Counted from the stretch's first letter, positions 1 to 22,118 are shown. The stretch: DNA of 64,000 nt from Escherichia coli (GCF_024502345.1 NZ_JALDNN010000003.1); one strand, 5' to 3'. Numbers and translations are program-made. Notes: a model not told the origin generated them from the letters alone.

Positions 1-816
1 ATTAATGAGTTGCCTGTAACGTCGCTGGTAAAGCCATTGACACAAGTGCATCTCAGCCTGTATCTGAAAACAACGCATTTATCTCAGTTCGTCCCTGACT
101 ACGTTGAGTCTCTGAAAGATTGTCCGGTTTCGTATGATATCGGCCTTGAACTTCAGCAGTGTATCAACAGTGCTGAATTGCTCTGTGAAGACATGGAGTC
201 ACTTGAGTTTATCTCTGTATGGATAGAGCTCTATACGTGTAATTCAAAGCAACAGCGGTTTGAGAAAAGTAACTTTTCTTTTCGAACTGAAGATATCGAG
301 CTGGCTAAGATGCTGTCTTGCTCGCATGAAATCTTAATAAGTCAGGCGGCTTGTTTCTGGCTTTTGTATTTTGAAGATTTCATGAAATATGTTCGTAATA
401 GGCTCTGTGCATTACTCAGACAGGTTTTAATTTTGATTGCAGGACTGCGAAATGTATACCTGCAACGGAATGAAGATCAGTTGATTAAGAGAGTTAAGCA
501 CGGGAATGAAATGCTGGAGGTGACTCTTAAAGCTGTTGCACTATGTTCAATGGAAAGGTATCTGAAATCATATGCCTCTTTACGAACAGAAGCGGCGGCT
601 TCTGGGTTTATCAAATGCATTCAGTCTTATATCAGTACTGGTTGGAGACATGGCTATATAGTCTGTCAATATTCAAAAAATGGACGGTCTCTTGGTAAGT
701 CATTACCACTTTTTATAAAAGAGACATCTGAGCATAATATACAGAAACGTGTCAATCGCCTTATATCTTCCACGATTTCGGGGCGAAATAAAGATTTAGG
801 TCTTTACGATTTCTGA
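1..816 (+). CDS. hypothetical protein, 5'-partial (open from window edge); first gene of same-strand array
   Basis: Frame 1 is open from base 1 (track ORF 10..816 begins at an internal TTG); AT-rich codon usage; followed 70 bp later by next array gene. Confidence 0.4.
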   Translation: MNELPVTSLVKPLTQVHLSLYLKTTHLSQFVPDYVESLKDCPVSYDIGLELQQCINSAELLCEDMESLEFISVWIELYTCNSKQQRFEKSNFSFRTEDIELAKMLSCSHEILISQAACFWLLYFEDFMKYVRNRLCALLRQVLILIAGLRNVYLQRNEDQLIKRVKHGNEMLEVTLKAVALCSMERYLKSYASLRTEAAASGFIKCIQSYISTGWRHGYIVCQYSKNGRSLGKSLPLFIKETSEHNIQKRVNRLISSTISGRNKDLGLYDF

Positions 817-886
817 TTAACATTACCCATCCGGGGATTACATCCCTGATGGGTGTAATCCCATTTTTTATTTAAGTGAGGATTAC

Positions 887-1822
887 ATGAAAATTATTGA
901 GAAAATCATTAATGCATTTCTGATATCGCGTAAACATTCAGTGAAGGTCAGTAATGTTATCTGCTTGAGTGGCACCGACGGTAAATTTACTGGAATATGC
1001 TGTGACGCCGATGTTTCATTTGATTTTCTTTATTCGTATGCCCCCGCATACAGTTCAACATTTTTAGATATCCCGTTTCCTGGGTTTGAAGACCAGGACA
1101 TCGCGGATTGTGTTAAATGTCAGTTAGATGTAGTTAAAAATAAACGGAATCGGTCTTTTTTAATTGACCATATTAGATTTCCAGTTTCCTCAAGGGAAGG
1201 ATTCACTCTGACACGCGGTGATAGTTACGACGTGACTGAATGTGAATATAATAAGGAACGATTGCTACATCTGACCCGACAAGGACGTTTTTGTGAAGAC
1301 TATCTCACGTTCAAGGATGGCCTGAGTTCCTTCTTTTCATTTGTGAATTTCGAATTACATGAAATAGTGAAGGAAGGTATACGTTTGGCACTTGATGTTT
1401 TAAACAAGATTACATCTGATCAACCAGACCGTCTTATAAAAGACTTTAAGTATCATGATTGCTTCGGCAGTTATAATGTACAAATATTTTCTAAGGGTCT
1501 GCCAGTTGATATCCTTGAAACGATGATTGCACCTGATAGGTTGTTGTCTAACTTGTCAGGTAGTCGTCAGATTATGAAAAATGCAAGTCGCTATCTTAAA
1601 GGCTTTGCCCTCAGTAATCGTGTTTACATGAAATACGGATGGCGTTTAGCAGATGTTGACACATCTGACTATGCGAAAGTTATGTCAGATAGAGAAATGC
1701 ATGCCAGAGATGATCTTAAGGCGTTTTGCAGTGTCTTTTTTAAAGAGTGTTTCGCATCCGGAAAATATGAATACGAAGCATACCTGAGTGAAAGACAACA
1801 CGCGATTCGTAACGGGTATTAA
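887..1822 (+). CDS. hypothetical protein, array member (311 aa)
   Basis: ATG preceded by GAGGA SD and conserved hairpin module; N-terminus MKIIEKIINAFL resembles next ORF (MKAIYKIIEAML); no recognised domain. Confidence 0.55.
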   Translation: MKIIEKIINAFLISRKHSVKVSNVICLSGTDGKFTGICCDADVSFDFLYSYAPAYSSTFLDIPFPGFEDQDIADCVKCQLDVVKNKRNRSFLIDHIRFPVSSREGFTLTRGDSYDVTECEYNKERLLHLTRQGRFCEDYLTFKDGLSSFFSFVNFELHEIVKEGIRLALDVLNKITSDQPDRLIKDFKYHDCFGSYNVQIFSKGLPVDILETMIAPDRLLSNLSGSRQIMKNASRYLKGFALSNRVYMKYGWRLADVDTSDYAKVMSDREMHARDDLKAFCSVFFKECFASGKYEYEAYLSERQHAIRNGY

Positions 1823-1899
1823 TACTTATTATCAACTTATCTAATCCCTGAGGGAATTCTTCCCTTGGAGAGGATTCCCTCTTAACCGAGGGCTACAAA

Positions 1900-2820
1900 A
1901 TGAAAGCGATTTATAAAATAATTGAAGCGATGCTGGTGAAAATGGGCTTTGAAGGTGCCGTGATCCAAAGTGTCAATCTGGAAACGGGTGTGATTCAGAG
2001 TCTAGTTGTTAAGGCTGATATTCCTGTCCGGACTTTAATGCCGCATTTAAGGCGATATCTGCGCGATTGTGAGCCTTTATGGGGACATGACGTGGATTAC
2101 CACCCTATAGCACAATATTGCTCAGGAGCTGCGTTGTTGAAGGCTGGGCCGGTCACTCTTGAAACCTTTCGGTTTGAGGTTTCAGTGTCAACTGCTCACC
2201 TGCGGCTTGTGGATATTGAGCCGGACTGTCTAAATGAGGGTGTGAACCGTGAAAAACTGGAGTATGTATATTACCGCTCCAGCAATGCAGACAAGGATCT
2301 AATACTTGGTATGGTTGAAAAAGGACATAATTTTATCAATCATCTGCATGAACTTTTACGCTCGCGCTTATCAACGGCTTTGCCGCTGATTTTCGCAGTT
2401 ACAGAAAAGATTGCGGAGAGTTCAGTTCCACAAGTAGTCACCAGCTTTTTCAGTGTTGACCATCAAATCAATGCCCAGATAGTAGTCGAACCTGTACCCG
2501 TTTCAGTCGCAGACCAGATAATTTCTGCTGACTGGAATGTGTGTAGTGTTTCAGGAGCGGATAAGTTCCTGAACCATGTTAATCGTTATCTGTCGGGTAG
2601 GGTGATGAAGCGGCGTATTTACGCTGTTATAGAAGCTTGCGACGGTGGATCTTTATCCCTCAATGCGAACTTAGGTTGCTTTACATCACCTCTTCTCGTA
2701 ACTGAGTATAAAATGGTTCAGTCACACTCTTCATCGCTTTATCGAAAGGCTATAAATAACTCGCTTAAGCAAGTTAATTCGTATGCTCCAGAGCATTCAG
2801 ATGACCTGCTTTCTATGTAA
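1900..2820 (+). CDS. hypothetical protein, array member (306 aa)
   Basis: ATG preceded by SD-like GAGGG and hairpin module; N-terminal similarity to 887..1822. Confidence 0.55.
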   Translation: MKAIYKIIEAMLVKMGFEGAVIQSVNLETGVIQSLVVKADIPVRTLMPHLRRYLRDCEPLWGHDVDYHPIAQYCSGAALLKAGPVTLETFRFEVSVSTAHLRLVDIEPDCLNEGVNREKLEYVYYRSSNADKDLILGMVEKGHNFINHLHELLRSRLSTALPLIFAVTEKIAESSVPQVVTSFFSVDHQINAQIVVEPVPVSVADQIISADWNVCSVSGADKFLNHVNRYLSGRVMKRRIYAVIEACDGGSLSLNANLGCFTSPLLVTEYKMVQSHSSSLYRKAINNSLKQVNSYAPEHSDDLLSM

Positions 2821-2892
2821 TTAATTTTACCCATTGGGGAAGCGTATTCCCCGTGGGGGTTGCTTCCTTTCTTCATTAAAGAGGAAGTGAAT

Positions 2893-3828
2893 ATGTTTAA
2901 TGAAAGTGATGATAAAAACTTTGTTAGTGCAATGCTTAAATGTCAACTTGGCCTGAATATAAGCCAAGAGGATATTACAATATATGACAAAGAAAATCAT
3001 TTTGAACAACTTTCTTTTAAAGCAAATGTGGCGCTTGATGATTTGTTATTTTATCTGGATTTATATATATCAGAATTGATTAAGCATAATGCGCCGTATT
3101 CTGAAACTGAAGTCCTTCGGACTAAAATCAAATACTTTCTTAAAGTATATGAAAAGTCTGGTTTTCAGAACATAAGAATTCGCGGTTATCATAACGCGCA
3201 CAGCACTATAGATATTGTCGATATCGCATCATTAATATTGGCGGGGTCTGTACCGGAGTCTGAACATGATTCAATAGATCCTGTTTTAAGAAAGGAAATC
3301 TATCAAAATCGCATGAGTGTTGAGGGTAAAGTTCTCATTGCCCGTTTTGCACTTAAGCAATTTTTCCATTCTGATTTTGGTGATTTCATCTTAGAGTTCG
3401 AGAAAAGTATCTCCAAGTGTTTGAATACTTCTCTCCAGATAATTAAATCTGTAAAGAACTCATTTAACCGTTTAGGTCAATATCAATATCAGCGTCGTGT
3501 AAAAGATGACCTGACTTTGCATCTTGATTTGAATACAGATGAATACCCGGCCTGTATGCCAGACCTTTACATCGGTTTCAAGGAGTCTGAAGGGACGACG
3601 GGAGTGTATCGCGATGATGAAAAAATCATTCGTCTTTATACTGGCGTTAGTTCCGGAAAGGATGTTCCTGTAATGATGACCGTTCGATTCACTGGCTGTG
3701 ACGGGAGTGTTTTGTCTGAATCATCGCACGGTACTTTCTGTTCCGTGGGACCTACCGGCCGAGTGCAGGTTTGTGACAGAGTTGCGTTGGTCCAAGAAGC
3801 GGTCGAAGAGTTACGGGATGTTGTTTAA
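2893..3828 (+). CDS. hypothetical protein, array member (311 aa)
   Basis: ATG at 2893 preceded by GAGGAAG SD (track ORF starts at upstream TTG 2860); shares blocks with 4005..4961 (KVLIARFALKQFFHSDF vs QVLIARFALEKFWDTHF; YQYQRRVKDDLTLHLDL vs YSYTRRITDELSLHISL). Confidence 0.55.
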   Translation: MFNESDDKNFVSAMLKCQLGLNISQEDITIYDKENHFEQLSFKANVALDDLLFYLDLYISELIKHNAPYSETEVLRTKIKYFLKVYEKSGFQNIRIRGYHNAHSTIDIVDIASLILAGSVPESEHDSIDPVLRKEIYQNRMSVEGKVLIARFALKQFFHSDFGDFILEFEKSISKCLNTSLQIIKSVKNSFNRLGQYQYQRRVKDDLTLHLDLNTDEYPACMPDLYIGFKESEGTTGVYRDDEKIIRLYTGVSSGKDVPVMMTVRFTGCDGSVLSESSHGTFCSVGPTGRVQVCDRVALVQEAVEELRDVV

Positions 3829-4004
3829 CCCTTGTTTTTTACCTCTTCATTCCAAAAAGTAACTTTGTTCTACCAAATGACCGCGCTACCTATTCTGATC
3901 AACTTGCAGGAAAGAATGGCGCAGTAGTACATATTTTTAATCCACCCACTGGGGAAGTCGCTCCCCTGTGGGGCACTTCCTTTAATAATCCTGAGGAAGT
4001 GAAG

Positions 4005-4961
4005 ATGACTAATTCTACTGATAACCAGAACTACGTTCGTGCAGTACTGGCAGGCATTGGTATTGATTTTGATGAAACAGAGATGTTTATCAGTGTCTCT
4101 CATTGCCAGAGCGACGAAGTTTCGTTTACATGCAGTATATCAGCCAGTGAGTTAAGAGAATCTGCGGGGCATTATGTGGATACTCTTAATGATACCCAAC
4201 TGGCTGGCCTGGATGCGGATGCACTCAAGAAGCGACTGGTTTACTTCCTTGAGGTTTTCGACCTGGTTTCCGGTCAATATCTGGATATTTCCGGTAAACA
4301 TTTCGCGACCAGCCGCTTTGAATACGACGATGTCTGTAGTGAGATCCTGAGTAACTCTGCGGACAGCGCCCAGCCAGGTGGCTATGATCGTGAAGAGTAC
4401 AAAAGACTGATGGAAGTTGATGGTCAGGTTTTAATCGCCCGATTTGCACTGGAAAAATTCTGGGATACGCATTTTATTGGGCTTATCAACTATGTATCAG
4501 ATGAAATAACATCCGGGCTTTATGAGGCTTATCGCACGTTCAGTGATATAAACATGGCCGGTTATACATTTAGTGAGTATTCATATACGCGTCGTATTAC
4601 CGACGAACTTAGTTTGCATATTTCACTTAAAGAGGACGATTTCGAAGAGCAATTAACCGATTGTTATATGGATGAAACAACGCTGCCGTCTGGCAAGGTG
4701 GTTTTACGCCGTAATAATGAATCAATTATTGGGATTTATGAAGGATATGCTTCAAAATCTTACTTTCCTATGGTTGCTAATGTTAGAGTCCTTGATACAG
4801 ATGGTGAAGTTGTTACTGAACTTTACCAAGGGGTGAATGTATCAGAATTAGCTGGTGGTCGGATTAAAATCCATGACCGTCAGGAATTAATTTCTGAGGT
4901 GTTCGCTAACTTACGTGAATTCATCCCAGCATCAGAGGATAAAATCTTTGATGCGGCATGA
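4005..4961 (+). CDS. hypothetical protein, array member (318 aa), paralog of 2893..3828
   Basis: ATG at 4005 preceded by GAGGAAG SD and hairpin module (track ORF starts at upstream GTG 3999); clear paralogy to preceding ORF. Confidence 0.55.
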   Translation: MTNSTDNQNYVRAVLAGIGIDFDETEMFISVSHCQSDEVSFTCSISASELRESAGHYVDTLNDTQLAGLDADALKKRLVYFLEVFDLVSGQYLDISGKHFATSRFEYDDVCSEILSNSADSAQPGGYDREEYKRLMEVDGQVLIARFALEKFWDTHFIGLINYVSDEITSGLYEAYRTFSDINMAGYTFSEYSYTRRITDELSLHISLKEDDFEEQLTDCYMDETTLPSGKVVLRRNNESIIGIYEGYASKSYFPMVANVRVLDTDGEVVTELYQGVNVSELAGGRIKIHDRQELISEVFANLREFIPASEDKIFDAA

Positions 4962-5007
4962 GTCCTGAAGGTTGAATTATATATTTTCAGGTTTTTATAC
5001 TTCTAAG

Positions 5008-5037
5008 AAGGCACGGTTATCCGTGCCTTTTTTTTTG
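5008..5037 (+). terminator. putative intrinsic terminator after the ORF array
   Basis: GC stem GGCACGG-TTAT-CCGTGCC followed by a run of 9 T, about 50 bp after the stop at 4961; coordinates approximate. Confidence 0.6.
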
Positions 5038-5697
5038 CTTTCGTCAAAACTTGCATTGATTTCACAATTTTACAACGTTCTTACTGCCCTATATGTTTTA
5101 CGGTACTGTACTCTTGGCACCGTTACATGTAAGCCTTCCATTACCTTCTTCAACCAAACCTAGCCTAATTTACATCCTTCCAGCTGTTTCCTTCTCTGCT
5201 TCTTTTACTCGAATGTTTTGCCCCTTGCTGACGTTTCCGGCAGCACACAGTCCGAATGCTGGAGCCTCCAAATTACTTTTTACTTCTTTTGTTTCGGTTT
5301 CGCGAAAATAGGTCTCTTATCTGAAAAATGGATCGTTAGAGATTTGTATACTGTTTAAAACAAAGGAGTCACTATGCCTGCCACTACAATCCTGAGCAAT
5401 AACCCTGTGAATTCGGTCTTCTCTAATGACAATAGCCATTTCACATACCGGCATATTGATTTCAGTATTGAGCTACTGCTTTCTTCAGGAACTGACTCAC
5501 AACTGGAATATCTGTTTCTCAAACCGGCGGCTGAAGTAAAGATCGATTTACAGCGCCGTTTAGCTAGTGGGGAACGTTACGTTACAACCGAGAGTTGTGA
5601 CAATTTTAGCGAAGTTGATGGCTGCATGGGACACGATTGCTGAGGACTTTATAACGGCAGGCGTCCGATTTAAAACAACACGAGACACTATCACCTA

Positions 5698-6288
5698 ATG
5701 ATGACTGAATCGTTCTTTGACTGGGTTGTGTATTGCATCACAGGCGTAATACTGGCATCTGCGTTCCTCGAAGGAAAAAGAACCCGTTTTCCGGCTGCAT
5801 TTTTTTACGGAAGCATTGTGCTGCTGGTCGTTTTGATAGTGGCCGGTGCCCTCAACTGGTGGTTCTACCGTTCTAAATTCGGCTCAGTTGTCGTTATTTT
5901 TGCCGCGACAACGCTGTTAATGACCCGATTCAGATTGGTTATTTATGCGTTCAGGTTTCGGACGCTGGTGGCAGATCTCCAATCACATGTAGCCAAGGGA
6001 TTCAGGATAATCCTTGTCTTACCCGAAAATGAAGACGAGAAGACCGTTTTGCTTAGCAAATTGTCGAAAGTGATACATTCTGGGACGTTGTTTTATACCC
6101 GAACTGCTCTGGGTCCATATTCTGGGGATCTCCTGCATGCTCTGGGACAAAAGCACCGAAATGGCGAGGGCTATCTGCTTCTTTGTGAGCAACAACTTCC
6201 GGCTCGAACCTGGCTAAGCACTGTAGAAAACGGTCAACCAGAGAAGTCTATTGCAGTTAATTTTCATTCGATCCCTGATATGGAGTGA
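5698..6288 (+). CDS. hypothetical membrane protein (196 aa)
   Basis: Long ORF with hydrophobic N-terminal segments (VLASAFLEG, IVLLVVLIVAGALNWWF, VVVIFAATTLLM); no recognised domain. Confidence 0.4.
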   Translation: MMTESFFDWVVYCITGVILASAFLEGKRTRFPAAFFYGSIVLLVVLIVAGALNWWFYRSKFGSVVVIFAATTLLMTRFRLVIYAFRFRTLVADLQSHVAKGFRIILVLPENEDEKTVLLSKLSKVIHSGTLFYTRTALGPYSGDLLHALGQKHRNGEGYLLLCEQQLPARTWLSTVENGQPEKSIAVNFHSIPDME

Positions 6289-6295
6289 TACCCCT

Positions 6296-6553
6296 ATGAG
6301 CAATACAGATTCACAGACCGTACCAGCTGATGCCCTGTGTGAAAACAGTTCTCAGGTGAAAATTCAGCTAAGTCGAAGCGCCTCACGAGCATTGACGACG
6401 GCGAAAGAAATTCTTGAAACCCGAGGGCTGGTATCCGTATCCACTGAAGACCTTGTTCAGGCCTGTCTCGAAGAAAATCAGCCACTCGACCTGGCAAGTA
6501 TCTATCTTGAGCACCGGCTAAAACAGAAGGGAACCAGTATCTGTGAATTTTAG
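6296..6553 (+). CDS. hypothetical protein (85 aa)
   Basis: ATG at 6296 with GGAG about 10 nt upstream; overlaps the end of the preceding ORF in a coupled arrangement. Confidence 0.35.
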   Translation: MSNTDSQTVPADALCENSSQVKIQLSRSASRALTTAKEILETRGLVSVSTEDLVQACLEENQPLDLASIYLEHRLKQKGTSICEF

Positions 6554-6626
6554 TGTTTTCCAACCTATTGGGGAAATTCCGGAATGTGTTTATATAGCTG
6601 TAAGTAAAGCACTCTACAGGTAAATA

Positions 6627-7163
6627 ATGAAAAGCAAAATTCACTCTTCAGGAACGTCCGGCACGAAACGAGTACTTAAAACGGATATTGCGTTGCCTCT
6701 GCTTTGTTGGGTGTTCACCAGTCCATTCAGTAACTGGACTGATAAGTTTTTTACCGGCACAGAAGTGCCGGAGGGCTCGCTGCCGGGTCTAGAACAGGCG
6801 CCTGAGGCTATCTTCCGATTTGTGCTCAATGACGAAGGTTTTGATGTTGGTTTTGACGCGGTGGGAATGGATCTCTGTTGTTTCTCTATCCCGCTTTCGA
6901 CGATGCCCACAAAGAATCTGGACGACGAAGAGACGTTGTCGAGGCTTACCGGCGACGTGATACACGGCGTCCTGCTTTCGCTTCCGGAGTACATTGAAAT
7001 GCCAGACAGGCTGGTCTATCAGCTAACTGATGAGGTCATGGCGTTCAATTCACACTGTGGCAACGGAATTCTACATGGATGGACGACGGCTCAAGAGTTG
7101 TGGCGAAACGAGATCCTGCCACGCACCACTATTTTGATGCAGCAGACATCAGTCATTCACTGA
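6627..7163 (+). CDS. hypothetical protein (178 aa)
   Basis: ORF track; same strand as neighbours; no recognised domain. Confidence 0.4.
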   Translation: MKSKIHSSGTSGTKRVLKTDIALPLLCWVFTSPFSNWTDKFFTGTEVPEGSLPGLEQAPEAIFRFVLNDEGFDVGFDAVGMDLCCFSIPLSTMPTKNLDDEETLSRLTGDVIHGVLLSLPEYIEMPDRLVYQLTDEVMAFNSHCGNGILHGWTTAQELWRNEILPRTTILMQQTSVIH

Positions 7164-7179
7164 GTTCCGGGGGCTCTGG

Positions 7180-7635
7180 ATGAAAAAGCGACTTTACCTT
7201 CTTGAATGGAAACTTCGTGAGACAAGAGCCTGGTTAGGATGGATGGTGTTCTGGATTATCATCAGTTTTATGTTTTTATCAGCGATGCTCATGACAGGTC
7301 ATTTGTTAAACAAAGTTGTCCTCCAGCCCGTTTGGCTGTGTATCTGGTCTTTACCCTGGCTGGGCTTCTTGTTGAAGGTACGCGTGACCGAGATGGATAA
7401 AGGGCTCGTGAATACACTTCAGCTCGGAGATCTGCCGGTTTTCCGCTGGAGTCGTTCTGTAGTTCCTGGCACCTGGTCTGTTGACAGAATTAATGGACGC
7501 TACCGGTTGAACCGGATTGGAACGGATGGTTTGACGGTACACTATCCGTGGCGCCTGAACTATCAGCCTTTGTTCCTGACACCGGATAAGCAGATTTCTG
7601 ATATTAACGGACGTGAACATGAACGAAAATTCTGA
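7180..7635 (+). CDS. hypothetical membrane protein (151 aa)
   Basis: ORF track; two hydrophobic segments near the N-terminus (WLGWMVFWIIISFMFLSAMLM, VWLCIWSLPWLGFLL). Confidence 0.4.
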   Translation: MKKRLYLLEWKLRETRAWLGWMVFWIIISFMFLSAMLMTGHLLNKVVLQPVWLCIWSLPWLGFLLKVRVTEMDKGLVNTLQLGDLPVFRWSRSVVPGTWSVDRINGRYRLNRIGTDGLTVHYPWRLNYQPLFLTPDKQISDINGREHERKF

Positions 7636-7846
7636 CGCAGTAGTGAGTGCCGCTACTTCCTGCCTGCTGTATGTGCGTGAAATCGAAAGGTCAGGCCCCG
7701 GTGAAATGCCGGTGTCATATTCAAATGAGCTTATCCAGAGATGGCTTAGTTCGGCTGAACGTCGTAATTTGCATTCCCGCCACAGCTTGCGTTCGATTCG
7801 TACAATTCTGAAGCACGCAAGGAAGAGCCGTCAGCCTGATTTTTAG
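7613..7846 (+). CDS. hypothetical small protein (77 aa)
   Basis: ORF track; start overlaps the 3' end of the preceding ORF. Confidence 0.3.
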   Translation: MNMNENSDAVVSAATSCLLYVREIERSGPGEMPVSYSNELIQRWLSSAERRNLHSRHSLRSIRTILKHARKSRQPDF

Positions 7847-8216
7847 AGCGTGATGCATTTGCTGGTGGAAGGGAAGGGTGTAATCCCGGATGTTTCAGTA
7901 TCGGATTTGGGCAATGTGCAGAACATACGTAATGAACTGATTGGTCTGGATTGGTGGGTGAAGTTTGGTGTAAAGCAGGACTGGCAGCGCATCAATCTGC
8001 AACGCCAGCCGGTCAGTTTTGGCCTTTTGAATGACCCTAATCGTTGTTTTCGGCATGACGGTCAGCAGGTTGAACCTCTGCCACTTTATACAACCGGCAA
8101 TCCCGGGGAATTGCGGAAGGTGCTGTAAAAGTACAACTACCGGCTGCATATCGACTCTTCAGAAGTCGTTGAAGACGTAACGGTGTTGCGCTGCTTTATT
8201 GAAACCGGAGTGATGA

Positions 8217-9176
8217 ATGGCCAGTGAAGATTTACTCTTTTACCGTGACCGGATTCTGGAGCGAATTGAAAAGCTCAGATCCTTTCTGAATGACCATCAG
8301 CCGGTGATGGCCGAGCTGATGACTGTGGGGACCGTCACACGACACGAAGAGCGGTTGAAAGAGGTGAACCCCATCGAGGTGAGTACTATTTCAGATGCCT
8401 CCGTGGATGAAATTATCCGTGTTATTCAGGATTTCTGTATCGATGACATTGATGTACTCAGCAGGAATTCGACGAAAGTGACAACCAAATACCCGGGGTT
8501 GATTATTGTTCCTGAGGGTGCCGAACAGCTGAGCGGAATTATTTGCGATATAAATGATGCCAAAAGTGACTTTGCCTCTGCAATGAAAAGGGTGAATTCG
8601 GAGAAACACATCCGGTTTAAGGAAGTTCACCGTAAGCTTCCCGGTCTGGTGACTGCGCATTCCACTCGCAAAATTCTGTTTGTGGAAGAACAGCTCAAAA
8701 AAGTTACTTTTGCCTGGCGGCTAAACCGAAACCAGGTAAAAACAAACGCAAGTGATCTCATCGCGATGCTGGATAAGCGTCGTTTAGTAGCGGTCAAATC
8801 GCCCGTGACAACTGACCTGACAGTGGTGGCGAACATCGATAGAGCGAAGGCATTACTGGAAAGAAAAGTACTGAGAGACGGCGAAGGGTATCGCCTTTGT
8901 CGAACCAATACCTTCCCGGTTCCGATAGCGCATTTGTTCACATACCGGCCTGAAGGCAAGGAGCGTGGAAGTAGCAAATATGCCGAGACTGATTACAAGG
9001 TGGTGAAAGCCTCATTACCCATTTTTGGCGTCGGACAAAAGCCAACAATTAAAAGACTTCAGGACTGGGTGCCAGCGCAGGATGAAGCACTGTCCAATGG
9101 TCGAAGGAGCAACCATAGCTACACGGAACTTGTACCCGGTGCAGATCTTGGCATTTTCATTATGAGAAAGGTCTGA
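8217..9176 (+). CDS. Tus-like (replication terminus site-binding protein family) homologue, divergent
   Basis: ATG with GGAG 7 nt upstream; 319 aa; blocks recalled from E. coli Tus: [23 protein letters not shown] vs [32 protein letters not shown] vs [18 protein letters not shown] vs VRLPGVLCY; comparison is from memory. Confidence 0.5.
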   Translation: [319 protein letters not shown]

Positions 9177-9186
9177 GGAGAAAAGC

Positions 9187-10095
9187 ATGCAATGGATTTC
9201 CACGACCAGCCAGAAACTTGATGAGAGACTTTATCGTGTCTGTGTCTGGGTGAAAAAATACCATGAGGATGCCATCAACCGTGTTGTGTTGACGGTTGAT
9301 CTCAGTAAGGCCCGCCATGACCCGATAGAGGACCAGGTACGGGCCGAGTTACTGTGTGGGCATTATTTTCTGATGCGGAAAGAGAACAACGCAAAATCGG
9401 CGCCAGCGGATCAGAACTTTGAATTTTTGCCTGACGGCCGCAACCTGAGCTGGCAGACGTCGACACCGGGGCTTCAGCACCTTCTCCTGAACAGCAATGT
9501 ACCTGAGTCCCTTAGGCCCCTGGCTGATTACATTCAGATGCGTCTGGCCAAGCTGACCATGGTCCCGATGTCGGGAACCATCATGAAAGCCGCACTGGAA
9601 GACAGCATCAGCTGGGTAAAAGTGGATCTGCGATACTACTGGCAGTATGAACTGGTTAATTCCCATCTGGGGCCTGTTCAGGTAACTCATAAGGCGCTTG
9701 TGCGATTCGGGAGGCTGGCAAAACACGATGAAAACGCTAGTGCAATTCGAATGCTTCGCCAGCGGTTGTCATCACCGTTTATTCAGGAATTTGAGATGCC
9801 TGGGGAGGAGCTGAAGCGCAAGCAGAAGATCATGAATACCGTTGATGTGAAAATGCTTTTCCACACACATTATCCGGGCCAGAAATTACTGCTGGCCCGA
9901 TATGCTAATGGTTGGGTGCTGGTGGATTGTTTCCTGTTCCACCATATCAAACCCAAAAAGAAGGCGAAAAACAAAACCAAAGCGGGTAAATCAGAAACTC
10001 AAAATATCAAATCGACGGGGAGTGAGGATCATGGAACTGGGCATTATGGTGTGCATCGTGTTGTTACTCTCACTGGCAGCGGTGTGGATCAGTAA
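9187..10095 (+). CDS. hypothetical protein (302 aa) with lysine-rich C-terminal tail
   Basis: ORF track; begins 11 bp after the Tus-like stop; no recognised domain. Confidence 0.4.
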   Translation: MQWISTTSQKLDERLYRVCVWVKKYHEDAINRVVLTVDLSKARHDPIEDQVRAELLCGHYFLMRKENNAKSAPADQNFEFLPDGRNLSWQTSTPGLQHLLLNSNVPESLRPLADYIQMRLAKLTMVPMSGTIMKAALEDSISWVKVDLRYYWQYELVNSHLGPVQVTHKALVRFGRLAKHDENASAIRMLRQRLSSPFIQEFEMPGEELKRKQKIMNTVDVKMLFHTHYPGQKLLLARYANGWVLVDCFLFHHIKPKKKAKNKTKAGKSETQNIKSTGSEDHGTGHYGVHRVVTLTGSGVDQ

Positions 10096-10375
10096 CAAGA
10101 CGGTCGGATTGCTGGAAATCCATTACTTTAAGCGGCCGCTGAGCATGGAGTATGCAGCCTGGCTGCGTGTGATGTGTGCCGGTTTGCTATTTATTTTTAT
10201 TCAGATGGTCCCGGCATTCACGTTTCTGTATACCCTGAAGCTGGTGGCACTGTTAAATCTGGGCGTGCAGACGATGAAGCTAAACGGGGTTTATAAATTT
10301 AAACGCACCGGGATGATGCCGCCGAAAGACGCCCCTCATGATCTTGGCCGCTTTAATCCATTTCGAAAGAAGTAA
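10031..10375 (+). CDS. hypothetical small membrane protein (114 aa)
   Basis: ATG at 10031 preceded by GAGGA; two hydrophobic helices; overlaps the 3' end of 9187..10095 in another frame, so one of the two may be mis-called. Confidence 0.3.
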   Translation: MELGIMVCIVLLLSLAAVWISNKTVGLLEIHYFKRPLSMEYAAWLRVMCAGLLFIFIQMVPAFTFLYTLKLVALLNLGVQTMKLNGVYKFKRTGMMPPKDAPHDLGRFNPFRKK

Positions 10376-13958: not shown

Positions 13959-14750
13959 ATGACGCAAGATGCAATCATTCAAATTCGCGATCTGGTTAAC
14001 TGCTTTGGCGTACAGTGCGTGCATCAAGGGTTGAATCTTGATGTTAAGCGCGGCGAAGTTCTTGGCGTGGTTGGTGGCTCGGGTACCGGTAAATCTGTTC
14101 TGTTACGCAGTATTGTTGGGTTACGTCGTCCGACTGACGGGAAAATTCATGTTTTTGGCAAGGATTTAATGGCACTGTCAGGTCAATCCCGCGCCATGGT
14201 CGAGCGCCGATTCGGCGTATTATTTCAACGAGGCGCACTGTTCAGTTCTCTAACCGTGACCGAGAACGTGGCATTACCATTAATAGAAAACGCCGGATTA
14301 CCCCGGTCTGAGGCTGAGCGATTGGCTCAGGTTAAACTGGCACTGGCTGGGCTACCGCCGGGCACTGGCAGTAAGTATCCAGCATCTCTGTCGGGTGGTA
14401 TGGTCAAGCGTGTTGCGCTAGCCCGTGCCTTAGCACTGGACCCGGATATTCTGTTTCTTGATGAACCGACTGCGGGTCTTGATCCCATTGGTGCGGCGGC
14501 GTTTGACAGTTTGATCCGCACCCTGCGGGATGCCCTCAATCTAACGGTATTCTTGGTGACCCACGATCTGGATACGCTGTATACACTGTGTGATCGTGTG
14601 GCGGTGCTTTCGCAGAAAAAAGTGCTGGTGGTTGATACTCTGGATAAAGTTGCAGCGACTGATGATGGCTGGATTCAGGCGTATTTTCATGGCCCACGTG
14701 GCCGGGCTGCTTATCAGGCAGCGGCAATTAACAGTGGAGAGAGGTTGTAA
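13959..14750 (+). CDS. ABC transporter ATP-binding protein (MlaF-like)
   Basis: Walker A GGSGTGKS, ABC signature LSGGMVKRVALARAL, Walker B ILFLDEPTAGLD; ATG at 13959 follows the permease stop. Confidence 0.85.
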   Translation: MTQDAIIQIRDLVNCFGVQCVHQGLNLDVKRGEVLGVVGGSGTGKSVLLRSIVGLRRPTDGKIHVFGKDLMALSGQSRAMVERRFGVLFQRGALFSSLTVTENVALPLIENAGLPRSEAERLAQVKLALAGLPPGTGSKYPASLSGGMVKRVALARALALDPDILFLDEPTAGLDPIGAAAFDSLIRTLRDALNLTVFLVTHDLDTLYTLCDRVAVLSQKKVLVVDTLDKVAATDDGWIQAYFHGPRGRAAYQAAAINSGERL

Positions 14751-16678: not shown

Positions 16679-17956
16679 ATGCAAAAAATAACACATCAAC
16701 AATTACTCGATTGGTTGAAAAAGGAAGTGAAACTTTCATTAGGTTGTACTGAGCCTATTGCTATTGCGTATGCTGCCGCAGTGGCTGCTAAATATCTCAA
16801 CGCACCGATATTAAAAATAACGGGGAATATATCGGAGAATCTGTATAAAAATGCGATGGGAGTCACTATTCCGGGAACAAGCTATTGCGGAGTCACTCTT
16901 GCGGCGGCAATAGGGGCTATTGGTGGTAACGCGGATGCCGATTTAGAAGTATTAAAAGATATTACTGCGACACAAATTACCGAAGCCTATATATTTAATG
17001 AATCAGGTAACGTGTGTCTAAACGCAGTAGATGCTACGGATTTTATTTTTATCGATATTACGCTATATAGTCTTAGTGATCAGTGCCGGGTAGTGATTCA
17101 AGGTAGCCATACTAATGTCACTGAAGTTTATATTAATAATATAAAGCAAATATTAGTCCGAGACCTAATTGCCGCCAATGATAGTGGGGTACTACCCGAA
17201 TTTTCCCTTAACGACGCATTTAAATTTGTAACCGATGTCGCCGCTAAAGACATCATGTTTATGCTGAAAAGTGCTGAGATTAATACCGCGCTTTCTGACG
17301 AGGGGCAAAGGAAGAACTATGGTTTGAACGTGAGTGGCGCGTTGTCGCAAGCCAGAAAAAATGGCTTTATCAGCACTGACTTACTGAGTCAAATGTTGAT
17401 CAACACCACTGCGGCATCAGATGCCCGTATGGGCGGCGCACCCTTACCCGCGATGTCAAATTATGGCTCTGGTAATCAGGGGATTACCGTGACAATGCCG
17501 GTAGTGACACTTGCCCGACATCTTAATACAGATGATGAAACACTGGCCCGGGCATTAGCGTTGGCCCATCTAGCCGCAATCTCAATTCATATGCGTTATA
17601 CCCGATTGTCTGCATTGTGTGCGGCGTCAACGGCAGCAATGGGGGCGGCGGCAGGTATGAGTTGGTTATTGACCCAAGATTTTCAAACTATCTCCTACGC
17701 GGTCAGTAATATGATCAGTGATATTAGTGGCATTATTTGCGATGGTGCATCAAATAGTTGTGCCATGAAAGTGTCTACCGCTACCGCCTGTGCATTTAAG
17801 TCGGTGTTGATGGCGCAACAAAATAGTGTTGCAGGGGAGCGTGATGGCATTGTTTCCTGCGATGTTGAAGGTTCTATCAATAATTTATGTAAATTAGTGT
17901 TATCGCCAATGAGGCAAACAGATAAAGAAATTATCAGTATAATGACACGTAAATAA
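16679..17956 (+). CDS. L-cysteine desulfidase CyuA/YhaM-family (serine dehydratase-like) protein
   Basis: 425 aa; N-terminal blocks LSLGCTEPIAIAYAAAVAA and GVTIPGTSYCG match the YhaM/CyuA family recalled from memory; AT-rich gene after a long AT-rich leader. Confidence 0.7.
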   Translation: MQKITHQQLLDWLKKEVKLSLGCTEPIAIAYAAAVAAKYLNAPILKITGNISENLYKNAMGVTIPGTSYCGVTLAAAIGAIGGNADADLEVLKDITATQITEAYIFNESGNVCLNAVDATDFIFIDITLYSLSDQCRVVIQGSHTNVTEVYINNIKQILVRDLIAANDSGVLPEFSLNDAFKFVTDVAAKDIMFMLKSAEINTALSDEGQRKNYGLNVSGALSQARKNGFISTDLLSQMLINTTAASDARMGGAPLPAMSNYGSGNQGITVTMPVVTLARHLNTDDETLARALALAHLAAISIHMRYTRLSALCAASTAAMGAAAGMSWLLTQDFQTISYAVSNMISDISGIICDGASNSCAMKVSTATACAFKSVLMAQQNSVAGERDGIVSCDVEGSINNLCKLVLSPMRQTDKEIISIMTRK

Positions 17957-21839: not shown

Positions 21840-22118
21840 AGGTAATTGCGGTGTATAAAACAAAGCCATTTTCGGCCAAAAAATGAGTCAGCTGAAGAAA
21901 CGCTCGTTAATTCCGAATCCGTCCAGATTAATATGGCACACTGCTGGTGGAGGTTTTGGCAATCGGAAAAGTAACTTTTCACCCGTGTCTAATCATCATC
22001 GTTTTATCAATCCGCTCAGTTACGGTATTAAAATCTCACGAAAAATAGTCTTCTTATCGAAGTGTCATGCTGTCTTCGCCCGATATAGTGAAGGTATGTA
22101 TTCAGCGGGGCCACTGAC

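Follow-up and report, generated by a model that had tools for sequence, protein, structure and literature searches.

Translation of neighbouring cistrons can be linked by RNA unfolding, as in rpmI-rplT, phage f1 genes VII-IX and the MS2 coat-lysis/replicase genes, where a downstream ribosome site is silenced by pairing and upstream translation is proposed to open it across tens of nucleotides (PMC12548453). For Escherichia coli rpmI-rplT, coupling of this kind is documented at +52 nucleotides (nt) (review PMC12548453). Translational attenuation of the ermC/cat type uses four segments that form two hairpins in the off state, the last holding the Shine-Dalgarno (SD) sequence, and an alternative pairing frees the SD when a ribosome sits on the first segment. 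In trp-type attenuators and intrinsic terminators, mutually exclusive hairpins are set by ribosome position near a stop codon, and at the T7 early-region RNase III sites, the repetitive extragenic palindromes and bacterial interspersed mosaic elements (REP/BIME) and the puf operon hairpins, a series of same-strand genes has a conserved hairpin in each spacer. Here, these systems are compared with the leaders that separate five genes for ~300-residue proteins, A0-A4, at positions 1-4961 of a 64,000-nt stretch of E. coli DNA (GCF_024502345.1, NZ_JALDNN010000003.1; the whole stretch is referred to as the window).

Positions 1-6000 of the window are 99.9% identical to >200 large conjugative plasmids, and by sequence the window is an R27-type IncHI1 backbone, typed as IncHI1A. 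Plasmids of the IncHI group are major vehicles of resistance to colistin and to multiple drugs, and no function is known for two thirds of their genes. In the operon studied here, the DUF3150 gene matches its counterpart in R27 (NC_002305.1), the IncHI1 archetype, with 100% identity. Plasmid pMAK1 was used as the reference locus (L001), window positions being L001 positions minus 15000. The operon follows the Tra2 helicase gene trhI and runs on one strand in the order g1, g2, g3, AAA ATPase, g5, DUF3150, VWA, g8, toprim, g10 and A0-A4, an order that is unchanged in IncHI1A, IncHI1B, IncHI2 and four remoter lineages.

Leader architecture and predicted folds

An initial annotation of the window had listed four open reading frames (ORFs) and a partial gene, separated by spacers (IG1-IG4) that each carry a palindrome, and all of these are present in the sequence as written. 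The genes lie on the + strand: the 3′ part of A0 at 1..816 (292 residues in full; R0202 in R27), A1 at 887..1822 (311 residues; R0201), A2 at 1900..2820 (306 residues; R0200), A3 at 2893..3828 (311 residues; R0199) and A4 at 4005..4961 (318 residues). The best, minimum free energy (MFE) fold of each spacer, termed fold A, consists of two adjacent hairpins, H1 and H2. H1 is GC-rich; its outer 5′ arm is the ACCCAY motif that had been described as a lead-in, and its inner stem pairs GGGGA with UCCC. In H2, an anti-SD segment directly 3′ of H1 (seg2) pairs with a segment that runs from the SD through to the start codon (seg3), and the loop, 79% A/U, is what had been described as a T-rich stretch. 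The structured, SD-linked nature of the spacers was correctly recognized in the initial annotation, although the palindrome is not the best fold; the key feature that it missed is sequestration of the SD with a conserved alternative fold.

That alternative, fold B, arises when seg1, comprising the inner 5′ arm and loop of H1, takes seg2. The 3′ half of H1 then pairs internally (CCC:GGG), and the SD becomes single-stranded. Seg1 is a look-alike of the SD (for example, GGGGATTACA compared with GAGGATTACA), and four G/C triplets serve both states, being paired 1:4 and 2:3 in fold A and 3:4 in fold B. Across the modules analysed, H1 and H2 are separated by 0-2 nt in 51 of 53, H2 ends 0-3 nt ahead of the start codon, and the mean energies are -16.2 kcal/mol for H1 and -10.3 kcal/mol for H2. 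Fold B is possible in 50 of the 53 modules, with a mean of -18.1 kcal/mol as compared with -28.9 kcal/mol for fold A.

In IG1, H1 (825..854, ACCCATC.GGGGAT...ATCCCTGATGGGT) contains seg1, the SD mimic GGGGATTACA (833-842). H2 (855..886) has a U-rich loop and pairs seg2 (GTAATCCC, 855-862) with seg3 (GAGGATTAC, 878-886; SD at 878-882) ahead of the start codon at 887-889, with a predicted probability of SD pairing, P(SD paired), of 0.88. Fold B of IG1 (834..862; folding free energy -19.5) is the palindrome of the initial annotation, composed of seg1:seg2 and the inner CCC:GGG, and is followed by ATTTTTTATT. In IG3, H1 spans 2830..2857 with seg1 GGGGAAGCG at 2836-2844, and H2 spans 2860..2890 with seg2 TTGCTTCC at 2860-2867, the SD GAGGA at 2881-2885 and the start codon at 2893-2895; P(SD paired) is 0.97. 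In IG4, H1 (3945..3972) lies 116 nt past the A3 stop codon and has seg1 GGGGAAGTCGC at 3951-3961; H2 spans 3974..4001, with seg2 GCACTTCC at 3973-3980, the SD GAGGA at 3993-3997, the start codon at 4005-4007 and P(SD paired) of 0.89. All of these elements lie on the + strand, as does the IG2 module (1845..1892), with seg1 GAGGGAAT at 1850-1857, seg2 CCCTC at 1877-1881 and the SD GAGGG at 1888-1892.

The H1+H2 fold of IG2 has an energy of -27.6 in pMAK1. The window carries A at position 1869 (G>A), a minority allele found, by shared 60-mer, in 13 of 221 IncHI1A plasmids; it weakens H1 of IG2, and fold B becomes the best predicted fold of that spacer. This natural change is a point test of the two-fold design, since a single base is predicted to flip IG2 to fold B.

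The spacers fold with MFE z-scores of -4 to -9 relative to shuffled sequences. Over the 39 annotated gene starts of L001, the median leader z-score was -5.0 for the operon and 0.0 for the 25 other genes (p=1.7e-6), and the median P(SD paired) was 0.87 and 0.52, respectively (p=5e-4). The first operon gene has no lock on its SD. Two further structural readings were rejected. An RNA thermometer of the ROSE or fourU type was ruled out in silico, as predicted P(SD paired) was flat from 20 to 50 °C in all ten L001 modules. An H-type pseudoknot joining the H1 loop to seg2 was rejected on geometric grounds, as it would require a 12-bp stem with a linker of 0-1 nt.

The leaders belong in kind with SD-sequestering coupling and attenuation devices, and their decoy, modular repetition and evolutionary spread set them apart. 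As in coupling elements, the SD and start codon are predicted to be sequestered in a stable structure. In the RNA-unfolding systems, however, the inhibitory partner sits inside the upstream ORF and is melted directly by ribosomes, whereas here the lock, H2, is confined to the spacer, a separate hairpin with a decoy (seg1) would serve as relay, and the arrangement recurs at at least 10 junctions of one operon. The conserved folds A and B provide consecutive alternative pairings with the SD in the last segment, as in ermC, but the exchange is between the 5′ arm of hairpin 1 and the 5′ arm of hairpin 2 rather than between segments 2 and 3. The leaders also differ from ermC/cat in having no dedicated stalling leader peptide or inducer: no short stalling ORF was found over segment 1, most modules follow full-length genes, and the “leader ORF” would be the full-length upstream gene. 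Relative to trp-type attenuators, which the terminator-like fold B of IG1 recalls, the U-tract is missing from most modules and the output is the SD rather than release of RNA polymerase. The RNase III sites, REP/BIME and puf hairpins, by contrast, do not pair with an SD and have no leader-specific decoy; REPs are near-identical repeats, whereas the leaders share their architecture only and differ in sequence.

Conservation and spread of the module

Conservation of pairing was assessed in eight orthologous spacer sets. Joint alignment of paralogous leaders was unusable, as MAFFT mis-registers the 3′ segment and RNAalifold then yields the GGGG/CCCC core only; per-spacer alignments and a covariance model were used instead. 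For each fold, 91% of the alignment cells were paired. Of 167 fold A pairs, 18 had changed on both sides and none was lost; the corresponding values for fold B were 10 of 107, again with none lost. Formal pair counts gave 82-95% paired, as compared with ~25-74% when the partners were slid. In IG1, H1 was 91% paired (25-53% when slid), the H2 helix was 100% paired over 8 orthologs with one compensatory pair, and fold B was 94.8% paired over the orthologs (44-57% when slid). One position covaries across seg1, seg2 and seg3 jointly, from U/A/U to C/G/C in IncHI2. These counts, drawn from sets of 7-8 related sequences, carry modest weight. Folding and covariation analysis of the spacers had been suggested in the initial annotation, and it revealed both folds to be kept across lineages with compensatory changes.

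A stronger test than covariation among orthologs is the comparison of divergent paralogous leaders within each lineage. The duplex formed by a leader's own seg1 and seg2 had a mean energy of -10.5 kcal/mol, as compared with -6.3 kcal/mol for mismatched partners, and 0 of 5000 permutations reached the observed sum. The own pairing ranked first in 33 of 53 leaders, where 7 would be expected. Such leader-specific copying of SD-proximal sequence by seg1 is unaccounted for, as is the compensatory upkeep of fold B, if the modules are constitutive dampers in which H2 keeps each cistron low, H1 acts as a nuclease barrier, as a 5′ cap-like hairpin after RNase E cleavage in an A/U-rich stretch or as part of an RNase III site on stacked H1/H2, and fold B is functionless. 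This explanation, which we consider somewhat unlikely, would fit the stability of H1 (mean -16 kcal/mol) and the A/U-rich single-stranded sequence that is always found 5′ of it. It would also suit modules far from stop codons, such as IG4 and the g10 leader, which would on paper work equally well as dampers, and the array transcripts of R27 microarrays, which are low and differ from gene to gene. Neither processing or stability functions nor protein binding would account for the three-way complementarity.

The changes also indicate the molecule on which the structure acts. G·U pairs outnumber A·C mismatches by 109 to 12, and the MFE of the sense strand is below that of the antisense strand; it follows that the structure acts in mRNA. 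These asymmetries make it hardly tenable that the modules are DNA-level elements, whether protein-binding palindromes, cruciforms or hairpins on transferred single-stranded DNA, as palindromic sequences on a conjugative plasmid might otherwise suggest. Moreover, the pairing involves the SD/start region, the modules all end at a coding-strand start codon, and the operon adjoins Tra2. The related idea of a leading region with single-stranded DNA promoters was dropped in view of the sense-strand structure (G·U bias), the pairing with the SD and the position of the operon beside Tra2 (trhI) rather than a mapped oriT.

The module is found 5′ of 11 of the 14 operon genes, and H1+H2 occur in 60 of 76 spacers over seven lineages. 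It is not confined to the array and also precedes unrelated genes, including DUF3150, VWA, g8 and g10. With a covariance model trained on A0>A1 orthologs only, ~26 paralogous leaders were recovered at E<=0.1; every one lies on the sense strand and has its 3′ end at a start codon. These include IG3 (2829-2893, E=0.004) and IG4 (3944-4004, E=0.001), and nothing below E=1 was found by this model in the other ~59 kb of the window. On a Klebsiella MOBH plasmid with a homologous operon (DUF3150 41% identical) the same leaders are present, and on a Vibrio MOBH plasmid with a homologous operon they are recognisable; neither operon has the array. The leader system therefore predates the array. The module sought in other genomes was thus found, with the whole operon rather than the array as its neighbour, and a duplicated gene-plus-leader unit, the arrangement described in the initial annotation, is not supported as the principle that organises the locus. 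Only IG3 and IG4 look like such a unit by sequence, their leaders being 72% identical (shuffles 46±3%) and their proteins 28%. In Rfam the spacers had no match, the best unrelated matches lying far under threshold. Direct reading of the four spacers for integron attC sites revealed no GTTRRRY, and the closest integrase, a tyrosine recombinase, is encoded ~6 kb downstream on the other strand.

The constancy of the four G/C triplets and of the ACCC 5′ boundary among otherwise divergent leaders, from Salmonella to Vibrio, could also be explained if a trans-acting factor reads them. A plasmid or host RNA-binding protein, helicase or small RNA would recognize the shared CCC..GGGRA..UCCC..GGG hairpin and flip fold A to fold B or stabilise fold A, giving operon-wide post-transcriptional control. 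The modules of g10, the first gene of the array unit, and of IG4 have no upstream ribosome nearby and would be served by such a factor. This is nonetheless unlikely: the conserved triplets are already explained by their double use (1:4 and 2:3 versus 3:4), no candidate RNA-binding domain is present among the small operon proteins in the Pfam matches on record, and fold B is left unaccounted for.

Taken together, the comparative and folding analyses show a conserved, stable predicted lock on the ribosome site and a leader-specific alternative fold predicted to open that lock. On this evidence, the leaders are a real conserved RNA motif with two selected conformations, predicted to control ribosome access at operon junctions. 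A compact testable RNA motif is thereby defined that would govern translation of at least 10 backbone genes, with exact nucleotides to mutate.

Proposed translational coupling and its alternatives

The reading favoured here, to which we would give a little less than an even chance, is that each spacer is a bistable cis-acting mRNA leader that makes translation of each cistron depend on ribosomes finishing the previous one. In the ground state, fold A (~ -29 kcal/mol), H1 would be stacked directly on H2 and the SD paired up to the start codon; de novo initiation would be strongly disfavoured because H2 pairs seg2 with the SD/start region. We infer that the trigger would be a ribosome ending the upstream cistron, which would occupy or melt the 5′ base of H1. 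Removal of this base would cancel the edge of ~10 kcal/mol held by fold A, so that fold B (~ -18 kcal/mol) would form, with seg1 capturing seg2 and the SD set free. Translation would in this way be relayed over spacers of 60-80 nt and the cistrons expressed as a chain, amounting to long-range translational coupling, in which the ~300-residue genes would be the cargo of the leader system. The two-fold leaders appear to be an undescribed way to chain the translation of neighbouring genes.

When 4-8 nt on the 5′ side of H1 were masked in silico, mean P(SD paired) fell from 0.79 to 0.61 and the SD opened in 21 of 53 modules; when the mask was extended over seg1, the SD closed again. The distance from the stop codon to H1 has a median of 10 nt and is <=9 nt in 21 of 44 modules. 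The lack of a lock on the first operon gene and the precedent of rpmI-rplT at +52 nt (PMC12548453) are also in line with the proposed trigger. H2 is never reachable by ribosomes on the upstream ORF, the lock lying wholly in the spacer.

Several observations weigh against coupling by this route. H1 lies >15 nt past the stop codon in 13 of 44 modules and >90 nt past it in 9 more, including IG4 and the g10 leader, and such distant modules are out of reach of a terminating ribosome. Mini-ORFs that could bring ribosomes to them have no SD and are not consistently conserved. The equilibrium model opens the SD in only ~40% of modules and never does so for g1>g2, g10>A0 and A3>A4 of L001. Structure right after a stop codon has been reported to lower coupling (Chemla et al., cited in PMC12548453). 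Finally, the orthologous sets are small (4-8 related sequences), and hence the per-spacer covariation statistics are modest.

Two mini-ORFs near distant modules were recorded. One, of 16 codons (MTALPILINLQERMAQ) at window 3877-3927, lies upstream of the IG4 leader, is confined to IncHI1 lineages and has no SD. The other begins at a conserved ATG in GACATGGT (L001 ~14240-14275) and, in five lineages, gives ORFs of 4-10 codons, again with no SD, that end -6 to +11 nt from H1 of g10.

The mutually exclusive folds could instead act on transcription, as the initial annotation envisaged in suggesting partial terminators or attenuators. Fold B with a U-tract would then be an intrinsic terminator and H1 the antiterminator, read-through being graded by how closely ribosomes trail RNA polymerase. 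Fold B of IG1 was indeed flagged as terminator-like, with 12 bp followed by ATTTTTTATT; the U-tract after fold B of the A0>A1 spacer is kept in all lineages, and fold-induction falls along the R27 operon from 22.9 to 5.25. Within the window, however, a hairpin followed by a U-tract occurs in IG1 only, and across the modules >=5 U in the 8 nt after fold B were found in only 18 of 50, with <=3 U in 22 of 50, so that the suggestion holds for a minority and fails for most. In addition, H1 is wholly transcribed ahead of seg2 and would normally win, and for attenuation no pairing between seg2 and the SD is required. As a general account of the leaders, attenuation is thus quite improbable.

Should the relay of translation outlined above prove true, it would represent bacterial coupling of translation across long spacers, an open point in the coupling field, and would provide a portable part with which operons of fixed expression ratios could be built.

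Array proteins and plasmid setting

The array proteins coincide with coding sequences annotated as “hypothetical protein” by RefSeq in pMAK1 and R27. A3 and A4 are related at E=3e-38 by BLASTP and E=9e-50 by hhalign, and A1 and A2 at E=6e-8 by BLASTP and 94% hhalign probability, bearing out the two paralogous pairs proposed from the sequence. Hidden Markov models (HMMs) of distant lineages bridge A0-A2 (via L014a, from the smallest array), A1-A2 and A3-A4. Given these bridges, two old paralog types can be distinguished, A0, A1 and A2 being type I and A3 and A4 type II. In L014, the smallest array, each type is represented by one gene, and the other arrays have 4 or 5 genes. No signal relating the array proteins to the ~300-residue operon proteins g1, g3 and post-Ter was detected.

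No domain had been recognised in these proteins by eye, and searches agreed: A0-A4 gave no match in Pfam, NCBIfam, PHROG, PADLOC or PDB and none to defence-system HMMs. A profile search of 1.84 billion cluster representatives returned 44 relatives, ~12 of them full length, all from IncHI-like elements. The AlphaFold2 model of A4 (pLDDT 88.6, pTM 0.83) had no fold match in the PDB and, in the AFDB, matched only uncharacterized ~300-residue Enterobacterales proteins (template-modelling score 0.6-0.68). Many weak matches (type III chaperone-like, actin-capping alpha, PsbP) are shared by A1 and A4, whose secondary-structure elements also follow a similar order, which suggests a common fold. Similarity to CesT/SycN-type chaperones and the TriX immunity protein, which are small alpha+beta binding modules, is at 3-15% identity with no whole-protein match to solved structures, and no function is transferable. 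For the effector or immunity-like role suggested in the initial annotation, the hints amount to such weak sub-domain fold similarities and to an R27 deletion that failed (below). The invariant residues of A3 and A4 are mostly hydrophobic and A4 is very acidic (isoelectric point 4.4); a binding role without enzymatic activity can only be guessed at for the array proteins.

In R27, IS2 interrupts A4 (L021 1479-2030 and 162-1390), and a Photorhabdus relative (L007 8812-10552) has a degraded array. A4 at least is therefore dispensable. By coordinates, R0199-R0205 of R27 correspond to A3, A2, A1, A0, g10, toprim and g8. Deletion of this segment (Del18; R27 168,601-175,050, or window ~2900-3900 back through A0 and further upstream to g8) was “unsuccessfully attempted several times”, and it alone of 19 deletions failed, whereas Del17 (downstream genes and the A4 remnant) and Del19 (VWA to g3) were obtained without stability defect (PMC4853401). 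Del18 may have failed for technical or for biological reasons. The sole R27 segment that resisted deletion is also where this plasmid-restricted protein family lies, its fold being predicted with confidence but matching none in the PDB.

A more far-reaching version of the coupling reading, which is doubtful although worth stating, would unite these observations. The leaders would be a new cis-regulatory RNA class, a “relay lock” that passes a ribosome signal from the 5′ base over 50-60 nt by strand exchange, in a domino chain over at least 10 junctions and in plasmids from IncHI to Vibrio MOBH; the array would be a two-type protein family with a new fold, the loss of which plasmid or host does not tolerate. 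Such intolerance would explain why the deletion over A3-A0, g10, toprim and g8 was the only one to fail in R27.

In R27 microarrays, a “cluster of 9 genes, from R0204 to R0002” was up 5- to 23-fold at 25 °C together with transfer genes, and the sole array gene listed was R0200 (A2), at 3.6-fold and with low signal (PMC7366339). By position and count, the cluster would correspond to toprim back to g1, with R0210, R0001 and R0002 assigned by count alone. Terminator-like sites are present after toprim, and the microarray pattern agrees with these sites and with the array as a separate unit of weak expression beginning at g10. The array transcription unit is closed by an intrinsic terminator on the + strand at 5005-5032 (also given as 5005..5041; GGCACGG-TTAT-CCGTGCC followed by a T9 run). 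A comparative-genomics preprint on R27 (10.1101/334409) holds nothing about the array genes or hairpins.

Beyond the terminator, a run of same-strand genes at window 5374-10375, which includes a gene for a Tus-like Ter protein, has short or overlapping spacers and unstructured leaders, in contrast to the operon. The IncHI1 backbone is then broken at window ~10700-33000 by an accessory region bounded by IS3 and IS26, with Tn7-like transposition genes and an ABC transporter, which is also found on the 454-kb E. coli plasmid NZ_CP034659.1.

The 397 nt between trhI and g1 (L001 4958-5354) are unusually structured (-117.8 kcal/mol), contain an inverted AAGTAACTTT pair and probably act as promoter and control region for the cold-induced operon. 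On the backbone, the palindromic 11-mer AAAGTWACTTT is enriched ~7-fold, with 20 matches in L001 as compared with 2.9 expected. Copies were located at window 266-276, 3856-3866, 8563-8573, 8700-8710 and 21968-21978 and at L001 5035-5058; an inverted pair precedes the first operon gene, and the long A3>A4 spacer has one copy. The 11-mer may serve as an operator or be bound by the Tus-like protein of the plasmid. Upstream of the window, at L001 12753-12807 (and at L019 ~17396-17455), the annotated toprim start codon is overlapped by a nearly perfect hairpin, ~60 nt long (-53.7 kcal/mol, z = -9). This hairpin is distinct from the H1/H2 leaders and is kept, with compensatory changes, in every lineage including Klebsiella.

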